Program-made: the position numbers and the translations under genes | IMG/VR virus record: IMGVR_UViG_2529293142_000024 | Direction: 5' to 3' (one strand) | Origin: a virus | Lineage: Duplodnaviria; Heunggongvirae; Uroviricota; Caudoviricetes | Length of the DNA: 6,159 bases | Shown: piece after piece, positions 1,101-4,963 of the stretch | Layout: each line of letters starts with the position of its first letter | How positions within the stretch are numbered: the stretch's first letter is position 1 | Notes under the pieces: generated by a model | Database searches by the model: none | The model's input: only the letters and a program-made list of their open reading frames with translations | Told to the model about the DNA's origin: nothing

Positions 1101-1470
1101 AACAAACAACAAAATCTTTTAGAATTAATGTGTTAAATAAATTTATGCTCATCTTTTAATCTCTAACACGTACTATTACATATTAATACATTCAATTAGT
1201 TACCATTTTTTTCGAGTTTTTTAGAGAAATTTTCGGGAATATTTCAGGTCAATCCATGCATACACAAGCAATTCCTGTATTGAATAATTCCGTAGCAATT
1301 ATGTAAAATCATCTCCGGCTGATTTTCATTCAAACTCGCGCTATCGAATAGCACAAAGCCTTGCAATCCAGTGCAAAGCTTTGTGTGTATGAGTTTTTTC
1401 TCACATCACCAGGCAATCATCAAACTCCGTATTCCTGGCGTCATTAATTATGTAAGTGATCACCACGAAT

Positions 1471-1498
1471 ATAGCCAGTGCAGAATAGCCAGTGCAGA
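1471..1498. repeat. perfect tandem duplication of a 14-bp unit (ATAGCCAGTGCAGA x2)
   Basis: Read directly: atagccagtgcaga at 1471-1484 and again at 1485-1498. Function unknown. Confidence 0.9.
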
Positions 1499-1730
1499 AC
1501 TGTAACCATCATCATCTTCTGGCAGCGCTTCCCTTCTCCCGTTATCCAGATTAACCGGGTGGTGCTGAGGATGAGTCCGATATCGCTTGATCCTGAATTC
1601 CACATCTATAGCAAAGCGGAAGGATGTCTCAATGTCGTGGACACACAGTGTTACAGCCACAAATCTATAGCCTAAGAAAGGTTTATTTTGTAATTAAAGA
1701 AGATTTTAAAAACCAGATTACTCATTCATA

Positions 1731-1759
1731 TAGACACCAATCCCCTACAGTCATAAAAT
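1731..1759 (+). promoter_or_regulatory. candidate sigma70 promoter for the acyltransferase gene
   Basis: TAGACA (1731-1736), 17-bp spacer, TAAAAT (1754-1759), about 43 bp upstream of the ATG at 1802. Followed by AAGAGG Shine-Dalgarno (1790-1795). Sequence-only prediction in an AT-rich region, so false-positive risk is high. Confidence 0.3.
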
Positions 1760-1801
1760 GCCTCTTTTGAATTGCTTTATCTTCATAACAAGAGGTTATT
1801 G

Positions 1802-2945
1802 ATGCTTCGCCACTTAACAGGACTCAGATTTATAGCTGCATTAATGGTTTATTTATGCCATTTAAATACAGACTATTTTGGTGTTTTTGTAAAAGAAATG
1901 TTTTCTCAGGGATTTATTGGCGTTTCCTTTTTCTTTATTTTATCTGGCTTCATTCTTTCATATTCATATGAAGACAAGCTAAAAAATGAAGTAACAAGTA
2001 AAAGACAGTTTATTCTTTTAAGATTGGCAAGAATTGTTCCAATGCATCTATTATTAGCCATGCCATTTATTTTACTAACCATTCACTTAAAGAACTTTGA
2101 TTTTTCAAAAACCTTAACAAATATTTTATTAATGCAAAGTTGGATACCAAAGGAGGATTACTACTTCTCATTAAATGGTGTATCATGGTCTTTGTCTGAT
2201 GAGCTGTTTTTTTATTTAATGTTTATTCCGTTGATTTATACATCAATTACAAAGAAAGTAATCACTGCAATATCAATTATAACTCTACTATTAACTATAT
2301 ATTTTTTAAAAATATACAAACAGAAGAACTTAATCACTGGTTATATTATATATTCCCAGTAAGCCGCTTGGTAGAATTTATTTGCGGCATGATTATTTAC
2401 GCTTGCTGGAAAAACAGCCGACAGCCGACAGCCGACAGCCGACAGCCGACAGCCGACAGCCGACAGCCGACAGCCGACAGCCGACAGCCGACAGCCGACA
2501 GCCGACAGCCGACAGCCGACAGCCGACAGCCGACAGCCGACAGCCGACAGCCGACAGCCGACAGCCTTTTGTTTTTAATTTCACTATTACCTCTGCTAAT
2601 AGCTATATATTATAGCAACAACATAAATAATAGTCTACGTTATTCGTTATATTATTTACTCCCCATGGTAATATTCTTTACTTCATGCATCTATCTAAGA
2701 AATGGAGTCATTCATACTATCCTCAGTTCAAAAACCCTAGAGCTATTAGGGAAATCATCATTTATTTTTATTTAATTCATCAACCCATTATATTATTTTG
2801 CTTTAAAATCTTTGGACATAACCCCGGACCACTCTATTTAATAGCGCTCCTTGTTATAATAACCATAGTCTCAATCATACTTTATAAATTAGTTGAGGAG
2901 CCTTTAGAGCTGATGCTAAGAAAACGAATTTTAGCAGTAAAATAA
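1802..2945 (+). pseudogene. acyltransferase family 3 (O-antigen/LPS O-acetyltransferase-like) integral membrane protein gene; frame-disrupted as sequenced, carrying an in-frame (CAGCCGA)21 tract
   Basis: Three consecutive ORF fragments in frames 2, 1 and 0 (1772-2362, 2368-2775, 2685-2945) together read as one AT3 protein of about 380 aa. Family hallmarks: N-terminus MLRHLTGLRFIAALMVYLCHL, motif VSWSLSDELFFY, R-x-VEFICGMIIYA, C-terminal GKSSFIF/YLIHQPII and LVEEP. ATG at 1802 has a good Shine-Dalgarno; the ORF-track start at 1772 is TTG. Frame breaks map to the T6A5 run (2302-2312) and the T5 run (2764-2768); each is repaired by +1 nt. About 28% GC against about 45-50% in flanking genes. Confidence 0.7.
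2415..2566 (+). repeat. simple-sequence repeat: 21 perfect copies of heptanucleotide CAGCCGA plus a partial copy (CAGCC), inside the acyltransferase coding region
   Basis: Counted directly: units start at 2415 + 7k for k = 0..20, then cagcc at 2562-2566. In the gene frame the tract encodes (SRQPTAD)x7. The tract is 71% GC. Confidence 0.97.
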
Positions 2946-2947
2946 AT

Positions 2948-2971
2948 AAAACCGCGCTATTGCGCGGTTTT
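2948..2971. terminator. bidirectional intrinsic terminator between the acyltransferase (+) and the phage tail operon (-)
   Basis: AAAACCGCGC (2948-2957), loop TATT, GCGCGGTTTT (2962-2971): a 10-bp stem with 6 GC pairs, flanked by A/T runs so a U-tract follows on either strand. It lies 3 bp after the acyltransferase stop (2943-2945) and overlaps the last codons and stop (2959-2957) of the minus-strand small ORF. Confidence 0.55.
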
Positions 2972-3136
2972 ATCTTCAGGCTTGATGAATTTTTTACCGT
3001 CATATGACCAGCCAATACCAACATCTCCAACACATTTAACTATATCCGCTTTTTCTGTCTTAAACTCTGACTTACCATCCCATACAACAAGATTTGTAAC
3101 GACACCATTTTGTACGACTGCATAAATATCGCTCAT
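2957..3136 (-). CDS. small phage protein (59 aa), function unknown; possibly a short or truncated tail-fibre accessory/assembly-like protein
   Basis: ATG at 3136-3134 overlaps the tail-fibre stop (TAATG). GGGAG Shine-Dalgarno at 3149-3145 with an 8-nt spacer. Product MSDIYAVVQNGVVTNLVVWDGKSEF...KTAQ. The ORF track extends it to a GTG at 3151. No family recognised with confidence. Confidence 0.45.
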   Translation of the reverse strand: MSDIYAVVQNGVVTNLVVWDGKSEFKTEKADIVKCVGDVGIGWSYDGKKFIKPEDKTAQ

Positions 3137-3729
3137 TACTGATACTCCCACACAAGAATATATCCCTGATTTCCATTATTTCCTGTCGCTGGGCCTGATG
3201 ACGCCTTATTGTATTTACCTGTCCCGCCAATACCGTATGTCCCAAGCATAGTAGTGGTTATACTTTCAACGCCAATCGCCTGATCATCACCAAGTCCAAG
3301 TGCCCCACATAAATTTGATCGTGAAACTGAATGGAACAGAATCCCTTGCCCTGTAGGAATTGGTGCTTCTGTTGCACTTCCCCCTGAAAATGGAGGTACC
3401 TGCTGAACTTGAGTTGATCCCCTTCCTCCCGGGCATACAAGCAAATCACCAAAGCTTGTATTCCCGCCGTCACCTCCAGAGCCTCCTGGTCCTGTTCCTG
3501 CTACACCACCGCTTCCAATAGTTACTTGCACGGATTCAGGTATAGACTGATAAAAAAATGCTTTAGCATATGCCCCGTTGGAACCGGCAGCACTTACACC
3601 ACAGTTATTTGAGGCTGTTGCTGATAAATTGCCACTGGCACCACCACCGCCAACGGCTTCCACTATAATTTTCGTTACACCAGGTGATTTGTGATAAGTC
3701 CCAGATGATCCAAATACCTGAACCCCCAA
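3136..3729 (-). CDS. tail fibre protein, glycine-rich C-terminal segment (probably the distal part of one fibre gene interrupted at 3782-3788)
   Basis: ORF with a TTG start and no credible Shine-Dalgarno. Gly-rich stretches (VEAVGGGGASG, GSGGVAGTGPGGSGGDGGNT) typical of phage fibre distal domains. Its frame is open upstream to the TAA at 3789-3787, directly after the A7 run of the upstream ORF. Confidence 0.6.
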   Translation of the reverse strand: MGVQVFGSSGTYHKSPGVTKIIVEAVGGGGASGNLSATASNNCGVSAAGSNGAYAKAFFYQSIPESVQVTIGSGGVAGTGPGGSGGDGGNTSFGDLLVCPGGRGSTQVQQVPPFSGGSATEAPIPTGQGILFHSVSRSNLCGALGLGDDQAIGVESITTTMLGTYGIGGTGKYNKASSGPATGNNGNQGYILVWEYQ

Positions 3730-3755
3730 AAGCCTTCCTGTTCCATCACCAAGTG

Positions 3756-4283
3756 TTAAATATTGTAGAGTTTCCGATACGTTTTTTTACTTAAAATTTC
3801 CCTACCATTTTGAGTCAGCACTGTCATATCCATTGTTCCAGCACCTGTAAAAAATGCCAGCCCATCCGGTATTCCTGTTAAGCTCGACAATGATGTCAGA
3901 TTATCATTTTTATCCTGTTTATCATTCAGAATGTCTGTCATTCCCAGGTTTTCGAGAGCCGTTTGCACAGTGCCATCCGATTTGATATCGCCAAACGGAT
4001 TCTTGCGGCTCAGGTATTCAACAGCAAACCCCGATCCCAGCAATTCAACAAAACCGGGCAGATCACCATTATCAAGCACATCCCGTTGCGTTTTGTCACT
4101 TACAAACTGGGCCAGAGCTGCAGCAATAAAGCTGGCCTGCCGAATAACCTTATTGACTTGCGCACTGGATGCTTTCCCTGCTGTAAATCCGGATAAAAGC
4201 GCAGGCAACGCTTCCCATTCCTCCTGCGACATAACATTGGCATTCCGATCAGTTGCAAACGCTTTAAAGTCATTTTTCGCCAT
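3756..4283 (-). CDS. tail fibre protein, N-terminal (baseplate-proximal) segment
   Basis: Product [33 protein letters not shown]... resembles the conserved N-termini of P2/Mu-type side tail fibres. ATG at 4283-4281 overlaps the stop of the upstream gene (TGATG), with GGGAG at 4298-4294. The ORF track's alternative ATG at 4301 has no usable spacer. Ends at TAA 3758-3756, 10 codons after an A7 run. Confidence 0.65.
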
Positions 4284-4963
4284 CAGAGTAATACTCCCCA
4301 TGCCCCTACATCAAAACCACTGATGAATTCGTTATCCATATCAAAACCAAAAAATTTTGAACCTTCCGATGGAGTTTCCACCGAAGGTGTTTCAATGCCA
4401 CCCGCCCAAACCCCGGCGGCTTTTACTGTGAGATATCCCTGTTTAATTGCAGCAATTAACTCACGCGATACATCTGAAATATCAGTATCAGGAAAGAGCC
4501 AGACCGATATCGTCATGTCCTGGTTATCGACTATCTGCATTCGCAGTCCGGATCCTGCTGTCGCCGCGTCAAGAATTGCTGGAAGCGAATCATTCCGTCC
4601 GTCCCAGTTATTAATCGCAATCTTCGCTTTAAGGATGACACGATAAGTTTCATCGCTGAGGTACATGTATCCGGAATCAGGATCGTATGGCCCCTGCCAT
4701 ACACCCTGATCATATCCAAGCCCGTCGGTATCCCAGCTGAAATAGACACCTGAGATAGGCTGGCTGACAACACGGCTACGTCCGATCCACAATCCAAGAA
4801 TGTCAAGTTGCACACCAACCGCAGAGTCAATATCAAATGCAGTAATCAGCCCTCTGGTGGCAGCCGCAACATCAATAAGCGGCCGGGTCATCAGATCAAC
4901 ATGTGCAAGAAATTTAGGTTTGGTGGCGTGGTAGTTCGTGATCAGTTCGGTGTATTTGCTCAT
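4283..4963 (-). CDS. phage baseplate/tail protein, P2 gpI / Mu gp48-like by position (226 aa)
   Basis: ATG at 4963-4961 overlaps the stop of the J-like gene (ATGA). Sits between the baseplate J-like gene and the tail fibre, as gpI does in P2-type, Mu-type and R-pyocin-type tail modules. Assignment is mainly positional; no motif recognised with certainty. Confidence 0.5.

Follow-up and report, generated by a model that had tools for sequence, protein, structure and literature searches.

Inside an acyltransferase gene carried by a prophage we find a long, perfect heptanucleotide repeat, and in related Escherichia genomes the same gene occurs with many repeat lengths, some in frame and some not. 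The DNA analysed is a stretch of 6,159 nucleotides from a virus of the Caudoviricetes (IMG/VR record IMGVR_UViG_2529293142_000024), called the window here. We suggest, with a probability of roughly 0.7, that this repeat, which codes for the loop joining transmembrane helices 6 and 7 (TM6-TM7) of an AT3-only acyltransferase, is a hypermutable microsatellite, and that slippage in it gives ON and OFF alleles. Should this be correct, E. coli would seem to have a second on/off switch of the neuO type, driven by a repeat.

The repeat tract

Two features of the window are needed at the outset.

1802..2945, plus strand: AT3-only acyltransferase gene, disrupted (PF01757 on its fragments, and an intact relative; relatives are intact, 339-381 aa)
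2414..2566, plus strand: heptanucleotide repeat, (ACAGCCG)x21 followed by ACAGCC, encoding (SRQPTAD)x7 in the TM6-TM7 loop

The tract is a perfect period-7 run of 153 bp, or 21.86 units. Tandem Repeats Finder, applied to the window, returns the same interval (period 7, 21.9 copies, 100% matches, score 306), and a regular expression finds 21 whole CAGCCGA units at 2415-2561. These results, together with a measurement of the maximal run, confirm the 21 perfect copies claimed by an earlier, sequence-only reading of this DNA. That reading also placed (SRQPTAD)x7 between two hydrophobic segments, and the peptides EFICGMIIYACWKN and SLLFLISLLPLLIA do share one frame with the heptads between them (ORF 2368-2775). 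Its figure of 71% GC for a tract inside a gene of about 28% GC agrees with 0.712 for the tract against 0.286 and 0.293 for the gene flanks (29% for the gene overall). All of its descriptive statements hold; what it overlooked is that the gene in the window is split over three frames.

A perfect repeat of 153 bp cannot have arisen by chance. The repeat is intragenic, at codon 206, and its 7-bp unit is not a multiple of 3, as in contingency loci; the length present in the window is in frame and so compatible with an ON state. The complementary strand, (CGGCTGT)n, folds as a predicted hairpin (-31.7 kcal/mol, z -6.85) that could favour slippage.

Length alleles in relatives

The window gene is 99.4% identical to an intact gene of 1020 bp, WP_000943925.1, present in 7 complete E. 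coli genomes. At the tract site all seven, and 499 contigs besides, have what we regard as the ground state: a 27-bp imperfect proto-repeat, ACAGCCG ACAGCAG ACAGTCG ACAGCC (3.86 units), within an intact ORF of 339 aa. Most relatives have 27 bp at this site, while in others it extends over 69-111 bp. Public assemblies of E. coli and E. albertii have tracts of between 2.86 and 21.86 units, with 14 different lengths or more; six are in frame and eight out of frame. The in-frame alleles encode 339, 346, 353, 360, 367 and 381 aa, and exact expanded alleles are found with 2, 3, 4, 5 and 7 heptads (346-381 aa). The truncated alleles have 2.86, 4.86, 5.86, 7.86, 8.86, 10.86, 11.86 and 17.86 units, and their tails, AFCF and PFVFNFTITSANSYIL, each ending at a stop, are exactly the products of both alternative frames downstream of the tract. 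Two E. albertii contigs, of 64,249 bp (7.86 units) and 64,319 bp (17.86 units), differ by 70 bp, which is 10 units.

The rest of the gene hardly varies. Among 24 DNA copies, the 998 nt outside the tract have 0-1 substitutions, while the tract site has 7 arrays of 27-153 nt. Mutation is thus localised to the tract and far faster there than in the flanks, which is the behaviour of a contingency locus. The sequence-only reading had proposed to compare copy number among related genomes, and the comparison bears it out: at least 14 lengths, in frame and frameshifted, in a gene that is otherwise almost invariant.

Since perfect long repeats can be mis-assembled, the tract might be suspected of being an assembly artefact. 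We consider this practically impossible. Five expanded alleles were read directly as DNA: one perfect array of 15.86 units (L028), three CAG-rich arrays of 10.86 and 9.86 units (L140, L141 and L142) and one TCG-rich array of 11.86 units (L144). Independent assemblies from different projects also have expansions at the same site, with differing lengths and unit compositions, and the suggestion is refuted by these two observations.

An intact 21-unit allele, known from its protein (P0089, WP_106940613.1), is common to 12 E. coli UniRef entries, so that it appears to be stable at the consensus level in its group. When metagenomes were scanned for the perfect tract plus flank there was no match, and with the flank only, two ancestral alleles were found.

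A proposed switch and its origin

Slipped-strand mispairing at replication would gain or lose 7-bp units. Because 7 is not a multiple of 3, the frame would be kept only at lengths reached from the 3.86-unit ground state in steps of three units. The loop of an ON allele would then contain 1 to 7 heptads of the SRQPTAD type. All other lengths would cause a frameshift, with translation ending 4 or 16 codons past the tract, and the OFF product would be without TM7-TM10. Expanded in-frame alleles, with a loop insert of up to 42 residues, are classed as putatively ON by their reading frame. Such slippage may be reversible within a clone, and switching might bring a fitness benefit.

The starting point would have been the 27-bp imperfect proto-repeat that is still present in most carriers, and the unit variants CCG, CAG and TCG would mark three independent expansions. 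The sequence-only reading took the perfection of the array as a sign of ongoing homogenisation. This assumption is superfluous; the expansion of one unit variant is a simpler account of a perfect array. Each expanded array consists mostly of one variant, and we therefore reject homogenisation of the gene-conversion type as a necessary cause. Arrays of the CAG and TCG lineages keep ancestral variant units at their ends, and single-variant arrays with such ends favour simple slippage of one unit.

The short imperfect array of most carriers is presumably stable. Hypermutability is accordingly a feature of minority lineages and need not be adaptive. One may go further and regard the tract as a non-adaptive microsatellite in a dispensable cargo gene: tracts drift and often kill the gene, they have no switching role, and the window is a decaying end point. 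That expanded alleles are few fits this explanation (none in the 7 complete genomes and 3 among 12 allele-independent matches, against the short allele on 499 contigs), yet three unit variants have expanded independently at one site and the perfect lineage alone has at least nine lengths. Two more frameshifts in the window gene, and one in the adjoining fibre gene, look like decay; outside the tract, however, the gene is without decay (0-1 substitutions), and intact in-frame alleles of up to 7 heptads persist and are common to several genomes. The same heptamer tracts in 111 stretches of unrelated genomes indicate that the motif itself expands readily, but ON and OFF alleles coexist here at roughly the proportions of the proven switch neuO (34% ON). 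On these grounds we think a purely non-adaptive tract unlikely.

Another suggestion is that the tract serves chiefly as a rheostat or linker that alters loop length, and that turning the gene on and off is not its main role. The RLKTQDS heptads of NeuO would be the parallel: there activity rises linearly with heptad number (PMC3046976). In-frame alleles with 1, 2, 3, 4, 5 and 7 heptads exist, and the loop that receives the insert, being short and unconserved, may tolerate a change of length. But a 7-bp unit causes a frameshift in two of three steps, and many OFF alleles are observed. As the chief role of the tract, variation of loop length seems to us improbable; it is nonetheless compatible with ON/OFF switching. 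A broader scheme would combine the two. The locus would show the birth of a contingency locus through at least three separate expansions of the proto-repeat (CCG, CAG, TCG), acting both as an ON/OFF switch and as an activity rheostat of 1-7 heptads, convergent with the unrelated NeuO, and 7-bp heptad repeats would be a recurrent design of glycan-acetylase cargo in Escherichia prophages. We offer this scheme tentatively and consider it doubtful as a whole.

The gene in the window

The copy in the window is spread over three frames (ORFs 1802-2362, 2368-2775 and 2685-2945), and the split is due to the loss of single bases at two sites outside the tract, about 2312 and about 2764.

2312..2313, plus strand: 1-bp deletion, TT to T, a frameshift recognized from alignments; the N-terminal ORF stops at 2360-2362, before the tract
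2759..2764, plus strand: T run shortened from T6 to T5, a second frameshift recognized from alignments; the middle ORF stops at 2773-2775

As sequenced, this copy could not be turned ON by any repeat number, since the stop at 2360-2362 lies upstream of the tract. For the same reason a change in the tract that compensates the frameshifts was rejected. The copy is either a pseudogene or the bearer of sequencing errors. The sequence-only reading had stated that a gene non-functional whatever its repeat number would speak against a switch. With its two deletions the window copy is such a gene; an otherwise identical intact 21-unit allele exists elsewhere (P0089), and the deletions may be errors.

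We give even odds that in this genome the 1-bp deletions at 2312, 2764 and 3781 (the last in the tail-fibre gene) came about through faulty sequencing or assembly of A/T-rich runs, and that the true gene is the intact, 381-aa, 21-unit ON allele. All three changes are deletions in T runs of AT-rich DNA, although only 2 of about 14 runs of at least 6 bases are hit and one change falls in a TT dinucleotide, where errors are not typical. In the 2.7 kb concerned, substitutions number only 1-3. Two of the three deletions are unique among the 24 copies, that at 2312 being seen in the window alone; the change from T6 to T5 at 2764, in contrast, is common to the window and one independent assembly (L150) only, and its recurrence could mean a genuine mutational hot spot. 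Restoring both bases in the acyltransferase gene gives a protein that exists exactly, WP_106940613.1. The assembly of a perfect 153-bp repeat suggests long reads, which are prone to such errors, but there are no indels elsewhere in the window.

The enzyme

The intact relative matches PF01757 with 106.9 bits (cut-off 31, E 1.4e-30, residues 5-320), and the N-terminal fragment in the window scores 55.2 bits. Among PHROGs the matches are phrog_3333, O-acetyltransferase (6.4e-51), and phrog_6705. At 339 aa, with PF01757 alone and no fused SGNH domain, the intact protein is like the Oac-type enzymes carried as prophage cargo. The AT3 motifs R/K-X10-H and RXXR (PMC9558356) are present as R9-X10-H20 and R74-L-A-R77; all of 32 homologues have H20 and R74, and R9 and R77 are nearly invariant among them. 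AT3 proteins have ten transmembrane helices, short cytoplasmic loops and a re-entrant TM3-TM4 loop (PMC9833829). Hydropathy segments and an AlphaFold model (pLDDT 91.7, pTM 0.90) agree on ten helices here, in accordance with this architecture. In the model the tract site falls in a loop, 206-212, between helices 186-205 and 213-228. This TM6-TM7 loop is predicted to be cytoplasmic, and it is short and unconserved among the 32 homologues. The top fold match in the PDB is HGSNAT, a transmembrane acetyl-CoA acetyltransferase (probability 0.97, TM 0.47).

Judged by analogy, the enzyme probably O-acetylates a surface polysaccharide; O-antigen may be its substrate, and acetylation might then affect phage receptor availability. 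The best match in a sequenced phage is the O-acetyltransferase of phage TL-2011b, at 35.5% identity. Sf6 was absent from the phage-collection matches at E <= 1e-5, and no NCBIfam model, hence no equivalog, matches the acyltransferase. In these two resources we found no close characterised relative and no orthology to a characterised Oac.

Genomic setting

Around the gene the following features are found.

1401..1612, minus strand: S24/LexA-type repressor gene, now a remnant, which lies in the shared cassette upstream of the acyltransferase gene (a pseudogene lies at the homologous position in relatives; coordinates from a BLAST alignment)
1731..1759, plus strand: promoter-like site, TAGACA-17-TAAAAT, 43 bp before the acyltransferase start codon (consensus scan, 10/12 matches; a consensus match only)
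1790..1795, plus strand: Shine-Dalgarno-like AAGAGG, 6 nt ahead of ATG 1802 (read from the sequence)
2944..2975, no strand assigned: G+C-rich hairpin bordered by T/A runs, where the acyltransferase gene and the small ORF converge (terminator scan: 14-pair stem, 6 G-C pairs)
2957..3136, minus strand: small conserved phage ORF, 59 aa from ATG 3136 (a hypothetical protein in all relatives; phrog_14370, 5.4e-27)
3136..4301, minus strand: tail-fibre gene, also in the cassette; a 1-bp deletion at 3781-3788 (T8 to T7) divides it into ORFs 3136-3729 and 3756-4301

Promoter-like sites are fewer in the region than in its shuffles. The hairpin is likely a bidirectional terminator. The 59-aa ORF accompanies the acyltransferase gene in every relative examined, and the intact relative of the tail-fibre gene, of 398 aa, matches tail-fibre PHROGs. 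In all contexts examined the acyltransferase gene lies at the prophage end, adjoining tail-fibre and baseplate genes. That an AT3-type gene is carried here by a prophage, as first supposed, is supported by the PF01757 match and by this position as cargo next to tail-fibre genes. A search of the phage collection found no close relative of the acyltransferase, which suggests that the element is not a described phage. Among complete RefSeq E. coli genomes none matches 80% or more of the window, exact searches with the fragment proteins of the window gave no match, and its baseplate proteins occur too widely to mark a lineage.

Comparison with known systems

The closest parallel in design is neuO of prophage CUS-3. 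It too is an acetyltransferase gene carried as cargo of an E. coli prophage, with an intragenic heptanucleotide repeat, and it is ON only in frame; in both genes three units encode one hydrophilic heptad (RLKTQDS in neuO, SRQPTAD in the window gene). Among genomes, neuO has 3-53 copies and is OFF in 65.6%, and an allele of 21 repeats is known (PMC13001214; PMC3046976). The proteins, however, differ. NeuO is a soluble trimeric left-handed beta-helix of the hexapeptide type, whereas the window protein is of the ten-helix AT3 membrane type: the Pfam scan gives PF01757 only, with no hexapeptide family, and the model is an all-helical membrane protein. The AAGACTC tract of neuO begins 2 nt past the start codon, while the CAGCCGA tract is in mid-gene, at codon 206, in an inter-helix loop. 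Essentially all neuO carriers have tracts, but most carriers of the AT3 gene keep the unexpanded 27-bp proto-repeat. The locus would work like neuO, outside the NeuO protein family.

Known AT3 enzymes provide other partial parallels. H. influenzae oafA encodes an AT3 O-acetylase of LOS heptose III and is phase variable through an intragenic simple repeat (PMC9558356, citing Fox et al. 2005). There, too, an AT3 surface-glycan acetyltransferase is switched by an intragenic repeat, but the repeat is a tetranucleotide, the gene is chromosomal rather than prophage-borne, and the host genus is another. Oac and OacA-D of the Shigella flexneri phages Sf6 and SfII, and the oac homologue of the E. coli O157 phage PhiV10, O-acetylate O-antigen and shield the lysogen from superinfection (PMC9558356). 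Like the window gene they are AT3-only and phage-encoded, of about 330 aa, with the R/K-X10-H and RXXR motifs; unlike it, no simple-repeat switch is described for them, and sequence similarity is remote. Salmonella oafB (family II gtrC) encodes an AT3-SGNH acetylase of O-antigen rhamnose that is phase variable and affects phage susceptibility (PMC9558356). It is also a horizontally acquired AT3 acetylase, but it is switched epigenetically through upstream regulatory signature sequences, with no coding repeat, and has a fused SGNH domain that is absent from the window gene.

Significance

Surface variation in E. coli is brought about mostly by invertible promoters and Dam-dependent switches, and among simple-repeat contingency loci of this species neuO is the standard example. 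If our main reading is true, there is a second prophage acetyltransferase with a heptanucleotide switch; it belongs to a different enzyme family and is spread over both E. coli and E. albertii. Temperate phages of the genus would then have a recurring strategy, the switching of surface-glycan acetylation by repeats, with consequences for serotyping, for vaccines and diagnostics based on O-antigen, and for host range in phage therapy. It is rare that one otherwise identical gene is available with its unexpanded ancestral form, with several expansions that arose independently, and with many descendants in ON and OFF states; how a contingency locus begins, and how it behaves early on, can therefore be measured here and need not be inferred.

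The locus is likely to be under-reported. With 153 bp, the perfect repeat has about the length of a common short read, and assemblies from such reads may break or collapse at it; annotation renders OFF alleles as truncated or split proteins.

The heptamer in other organisms

A literature search found neither the CAGCCGA repeat nor the SRQPTAD heptad in any publication. Searched bare in species-representative genomes, the repeat occurs at 111 unrelated loci, so the motif recurs; Escherichia is absent among the 80 of these 111 loci that were listed. A protein search with the repeat-bearing fragment found mostly unrelated proteins that have the SRQPTAD peptide in common. In Mannheimia haemolytica a "DNA methylase N-4/N-6" has an N-terminal (RQPTADS)n of 3-8 heptads, with two alternative out-of-frame tails among strains, which is the pattern of a classic phase-variable gene. 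Judged from the peptide, its nucleotide unit would be the same as ours, whereas the known repeat of Mannheimia mod is GCACA, unlike the CAGCCGA heptamer. Gene and host are unrelated to those described here, and the Mannheimia tract lies near the 5' end.

Repeat tract and ground state of the locus

The sequence-only reading had described 21 perfect heptanucleotide repeats here, and TRF agrees: a perfect period-7 run of 153 bp (score 306, 100% matches), or 21.86 units with the partial end units, occupies 2414-2566 and holds 21 complete CAGCCGA units at 2415-2561. Its remarks on composition and coding also held: G+C is 0.71 in the tract and 0.29 in the remaining gene, and ORF 2368-2775 carries a (SRQPTAD)x7 insert flanked by hydrophobic peptides. 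Because 7 and 3 have no common factor, the tract reads as the same seven codons in whichever of the three frames it is translated, with no stop in any of them. Frameshifted reading stops shortly 3' of the tract, as ...AFCF* or ...PFVFNFTITSANSYIL*.

Such a tract is not found in most carriers. Seven complete E. coli genomes have the acyltransferase gene 99.4% identical and intact (1020-bp ORF in all seven). Their tract site is a 27-bp proto-repeat, ACAGCCG ACAGCAG ACAGTCG ACAGCC, that is 3.86 imperfect units encoding NSRQQTVDS. The 339-aa acyltransferase is recorded on 499 contigs. In a Citrobacter homologue (83% identical) the loop is equally long and non-repetitive. The short loop is thus the ground state of the locus.

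Length polymorphism

Copy number in related genomes, whose comparison had been proposed as a check, proved highly variable. Exact-sequence look-ups and cluster listings for E. coli and E. albertii gave many lengths, in-frame and frameshifted.

Tract alleles (units, product)
In-frame: 3.86, 339 aa
In-frame: 6.86, 346 aa
In-frame: 9.86, 353 aa
In-frame: 12.86, 360 aa
In-frame: 15.86, 367 aa
In-frame: 21.86, 381 aa (WP_106940613.1, 12 E. coli entries)
Frameshifted, truncated: 2.86, 214 aa
Frameshifted, truncated: 4.86, 231 aa
Frameshifted, truncated: 5.86, 221 aa
Frameshifted, truncated: 7.86, 238 aa
Frameshifted, truncated: 8.86, 228 aa
Frameshifted, truncated: 10.86, 245 aa
Frameshifted, truncated: 11.86, 235 aa
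Frameshifted, truncated: 17.86, 249 aa

A residual 125-aa C-terminal ORF on 24 contigs marks additional alleles whose tract breaks the frame (OFF). When copies were gathered by flank alone, independently of allele (n=12), nine were ancestral, and one each had 15.86 units (frame kept, ON), 11.86 units (OFF) and a further-degenerated 3.86-unit array.

Unit composition was read from the DNA of five expanded alleles.

Arrays in the window and in relatives (L numbers)
Window: 21.86 units, CCG units throughout
L028: 15.86 units, CCG units throughout, intact 367-aa ORF
L141 and L142: 9.86 units, CCG/CAG mixed
L140: 10.86 units, six CAG units in succession, OFF
L144: 11.86 units, nine TCG units in succession, OFF

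Each of the three unit variants of the proto-repeat has thus expanded separately.

Hypermutability and a possible mechanism

Across 24 DNA copies, the gene without its tract (998 nt) shows 0 or 1 substitutions against the reference. Tract length in these copies varies between 27 and 153 nt, with seven different arrays represented; four expanded alleles lack any substitution in the remaining gene. The E. albertii contigs with the 7.86- and 17.86-unit alleles measure 64,249 and 64,319 bp. The difference of 70 bp is 10 units, and these lengths suggest near-identical genomes that differ at the tract only.

The data fit slipped-strand mispairing, which would add or remove 7-bp units. Alleles at adjacent unit counts mean that single-unit differences do occur. 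One unit variant predominates in each expanded array, and ancestral variants are retained at array ends in the CAG and TCG lineages. The coding strand (2414-2560) is unstructured, being less folded than shuffled sequences (z = +4.1), while the complementary (CGGCTGT)n strand is predicted to permit a long G-C/G-T hairpin (-31.7 kcal/mol, z = -6.85). Strand asymmetry in folding favours slippage in other repeats, and the hairpin might promote it here. Since E. coli mismatch repair deals with loops of a few bases only, 7-base loops should escape it.

The acyltransferase and its setting

Features of the acyltransferase gene
1731-1759, promoter-like site
1790-1795, Shine-Dalgarno sequence
1802-2945 (+), acyltransferase-3 gene (PF01757 match)
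2944-2975, terminator hairpin

The relatives' intact protein is 339 aa long and has no second domain. The AT3 family motifs R-X10-H (R9...H20) and RXXR (R74-L-A-R77) (PMC9558356) are both kept in 32 homologues. A confident AlphaFold model (pLDDT 91.7, pTM 0.90) predicts a helical bundle, as expected of AT3 architecture (PMC9833829); the closest solved structure is HGSNAT, a transmembrane acetyl-CoA acetyltransferase. Its PHROGs matches are phage O-acetyltransferases and O-antigen acetylases. It has no close characterised relative, the top match in the phage collection being only 35.5% identical.

Hydropathy and the model place the tract in a predicted loop, 206-212, between helices 186-205 and 213-228. 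With an intracellular N-terminus and ten helices this would be the TM6-TM7 loop, predicted to be cytoplasmic, with which its K and R residues agree. The loop is short and unconserved among homologues, and intact natural alleles hold up to 42 extra residues there. Plausibly a flexible hydrophilic insert is tolerated, the activity of these alleles being putative. In OFF products translation stops after TM6, and the domain's conserved C-terminal third is missing.

The gene lies at the prophage end, adjoining the chromosomal gene pphA; a small conserved ORF and a tail-fibre gene are convergent with it. An S24-repressor remnant, the acyltransferase, the small ORF (phrog_14370) and the tail fibre move together (window 1297-4301; L001-L007, L027, L140-L142). 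This cassette occurs on two prophage backbones (Mu-like gp45-gp48 baseplate; DUF2612 plus Baseplate_J) and in at least four chromosomal neighbourhoods (argW-intS/yfdC, bioA-ybhB, pphA, paoD). The repressor remnant, upstream of the acyltransferase, contains a perfect 14-bp tandem duplication (ATAGCCAGTGCAGA x2.1) at 1471-1499.

The window copy is broken as sequenced

Aligned with all relatives, the window lacks one base at each of three sites.

2312, TT to T
2764, T6 to T5
3781, T8 to T7 (site 3781-3788)

The first two deletions divide the acyltransferase gene over three frames. Since the first of them leads to a stop at 2360-2362, upstream of the tract, the copy as sequenced cannot be restored by any repeat number. 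The third interrupts the tail-fibre gene, 3136-4301 (-), leaving ORFs 3756-4301 and 3136-3729; the intact relative has 398 aa and matches tail-fibre PHROGs.

Sequencing errors and real deletions are about equally likely explanations. All three changes are deletions in T runs where the DNA is AT-rich, the same 2.7 kb holds as few substitutions as deletions, and putting back the two gene bases yields exactly the known 381-aa protein. Two of the three, including the tail-fibre deletion, occur in no other of the 24 copies. All this points to error. However, just 2 of ~14 long runs are hit, one site is a dinucleotide, and L150, assembled independently, also shows the T6-to-T5 change; these points favour real deletions.

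The shortened run is in the 3' part of the acyltransferase gene, at 2759-2764 in the window and ~250 bp downstream of the tract site in L150 (IMGVR_UViG_2529293142_000029). The tract allele of L150 is degenerate and unlike that of the window: ACAGCCG ACAGCAG AAAGTCG GCAGCC. Either frameshifts recur at the T6 run, making it a second hot spot in the gene, or sequencing errors do.

The proposal of a slipped-strand phase-variation switch fails for the window copy as sequenced, whose stop precedes the tract. Phase variation at the locus level is well supported by a hypermutable tract and ON and OFF alleles in a surface-glycan-type acetylase gene on a prophage. Clonal switching and a phenotype are candidate properties.

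Comparison with known systems

The nearest analogue of the locus is neuO of prophage CUS-3, a phage-cargo O-acetyltransferase gene of E. coli K1 with the 5' heptanucleotide repeat AAGACTC. neuO is ON solely at copy numbers divisible by three, ranges from 3 to 53 copies over 64 complete genomes and is OFF in 65.6%; in culture, 93% of cells of a 21-repeat strain kept 21 repeats (PMC13001214). NeuO activity rises in proportion to the number of RLKTQDS heptads (PMC3046976). The mode of working is alike, but our protein lies outside the NeuO family: it is an AT3 membrane protein, whereas NeuO is a beta-helix enzyme. The unit differs too, the tract falls in the middle of the gene, within a transmembrane loop, and in most carriers the proto-repeat is still unexpanded. 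This natural series, from proto-repeat through to long tract, gives the locus added interest.

H. influenzae oafA resembles it as an AT3 gene under a simple-repeat switch, according to PMC9558356. Shigella phages encode AT3-only O-antigen acetylases, for which no repeat switch is described, and Salmonella oafB switches epigenetically rather than by a coding repeat (PMC9558356). Full-text literature searches found no mention of this repeat, heptad or locus.

The heptad and heptamer elsewhere

In Mannheimia haemolytica and M. varigena, a 'DNA methylase N-4/N-6' (proteins P0012, P0043, P0062-P0075) has 3-8 copies of (RQPTADS)n near its N-terminus and, depending on the strain, one or other of two out-of-frame tails, a pattern typical of phase-variable methyltransferases. 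As the reported repeat of a M. haemolytica mod gene is GCACA, the heptad tract may be a different, undescribed switch.

A genome contig scan found (CAGCCGA)x5 or longer in 111 stretches from highly diverse species (L029-L108 listed), several matches beginning a few bases from the end of the fetched stretch. Among the matches listed, carriers include Streptomyces, Dyadobacter, Chloroflexi, Cupriavidus and Xanthomonas. It seems that this heptamer recurs as a microsatellite in different phyla.
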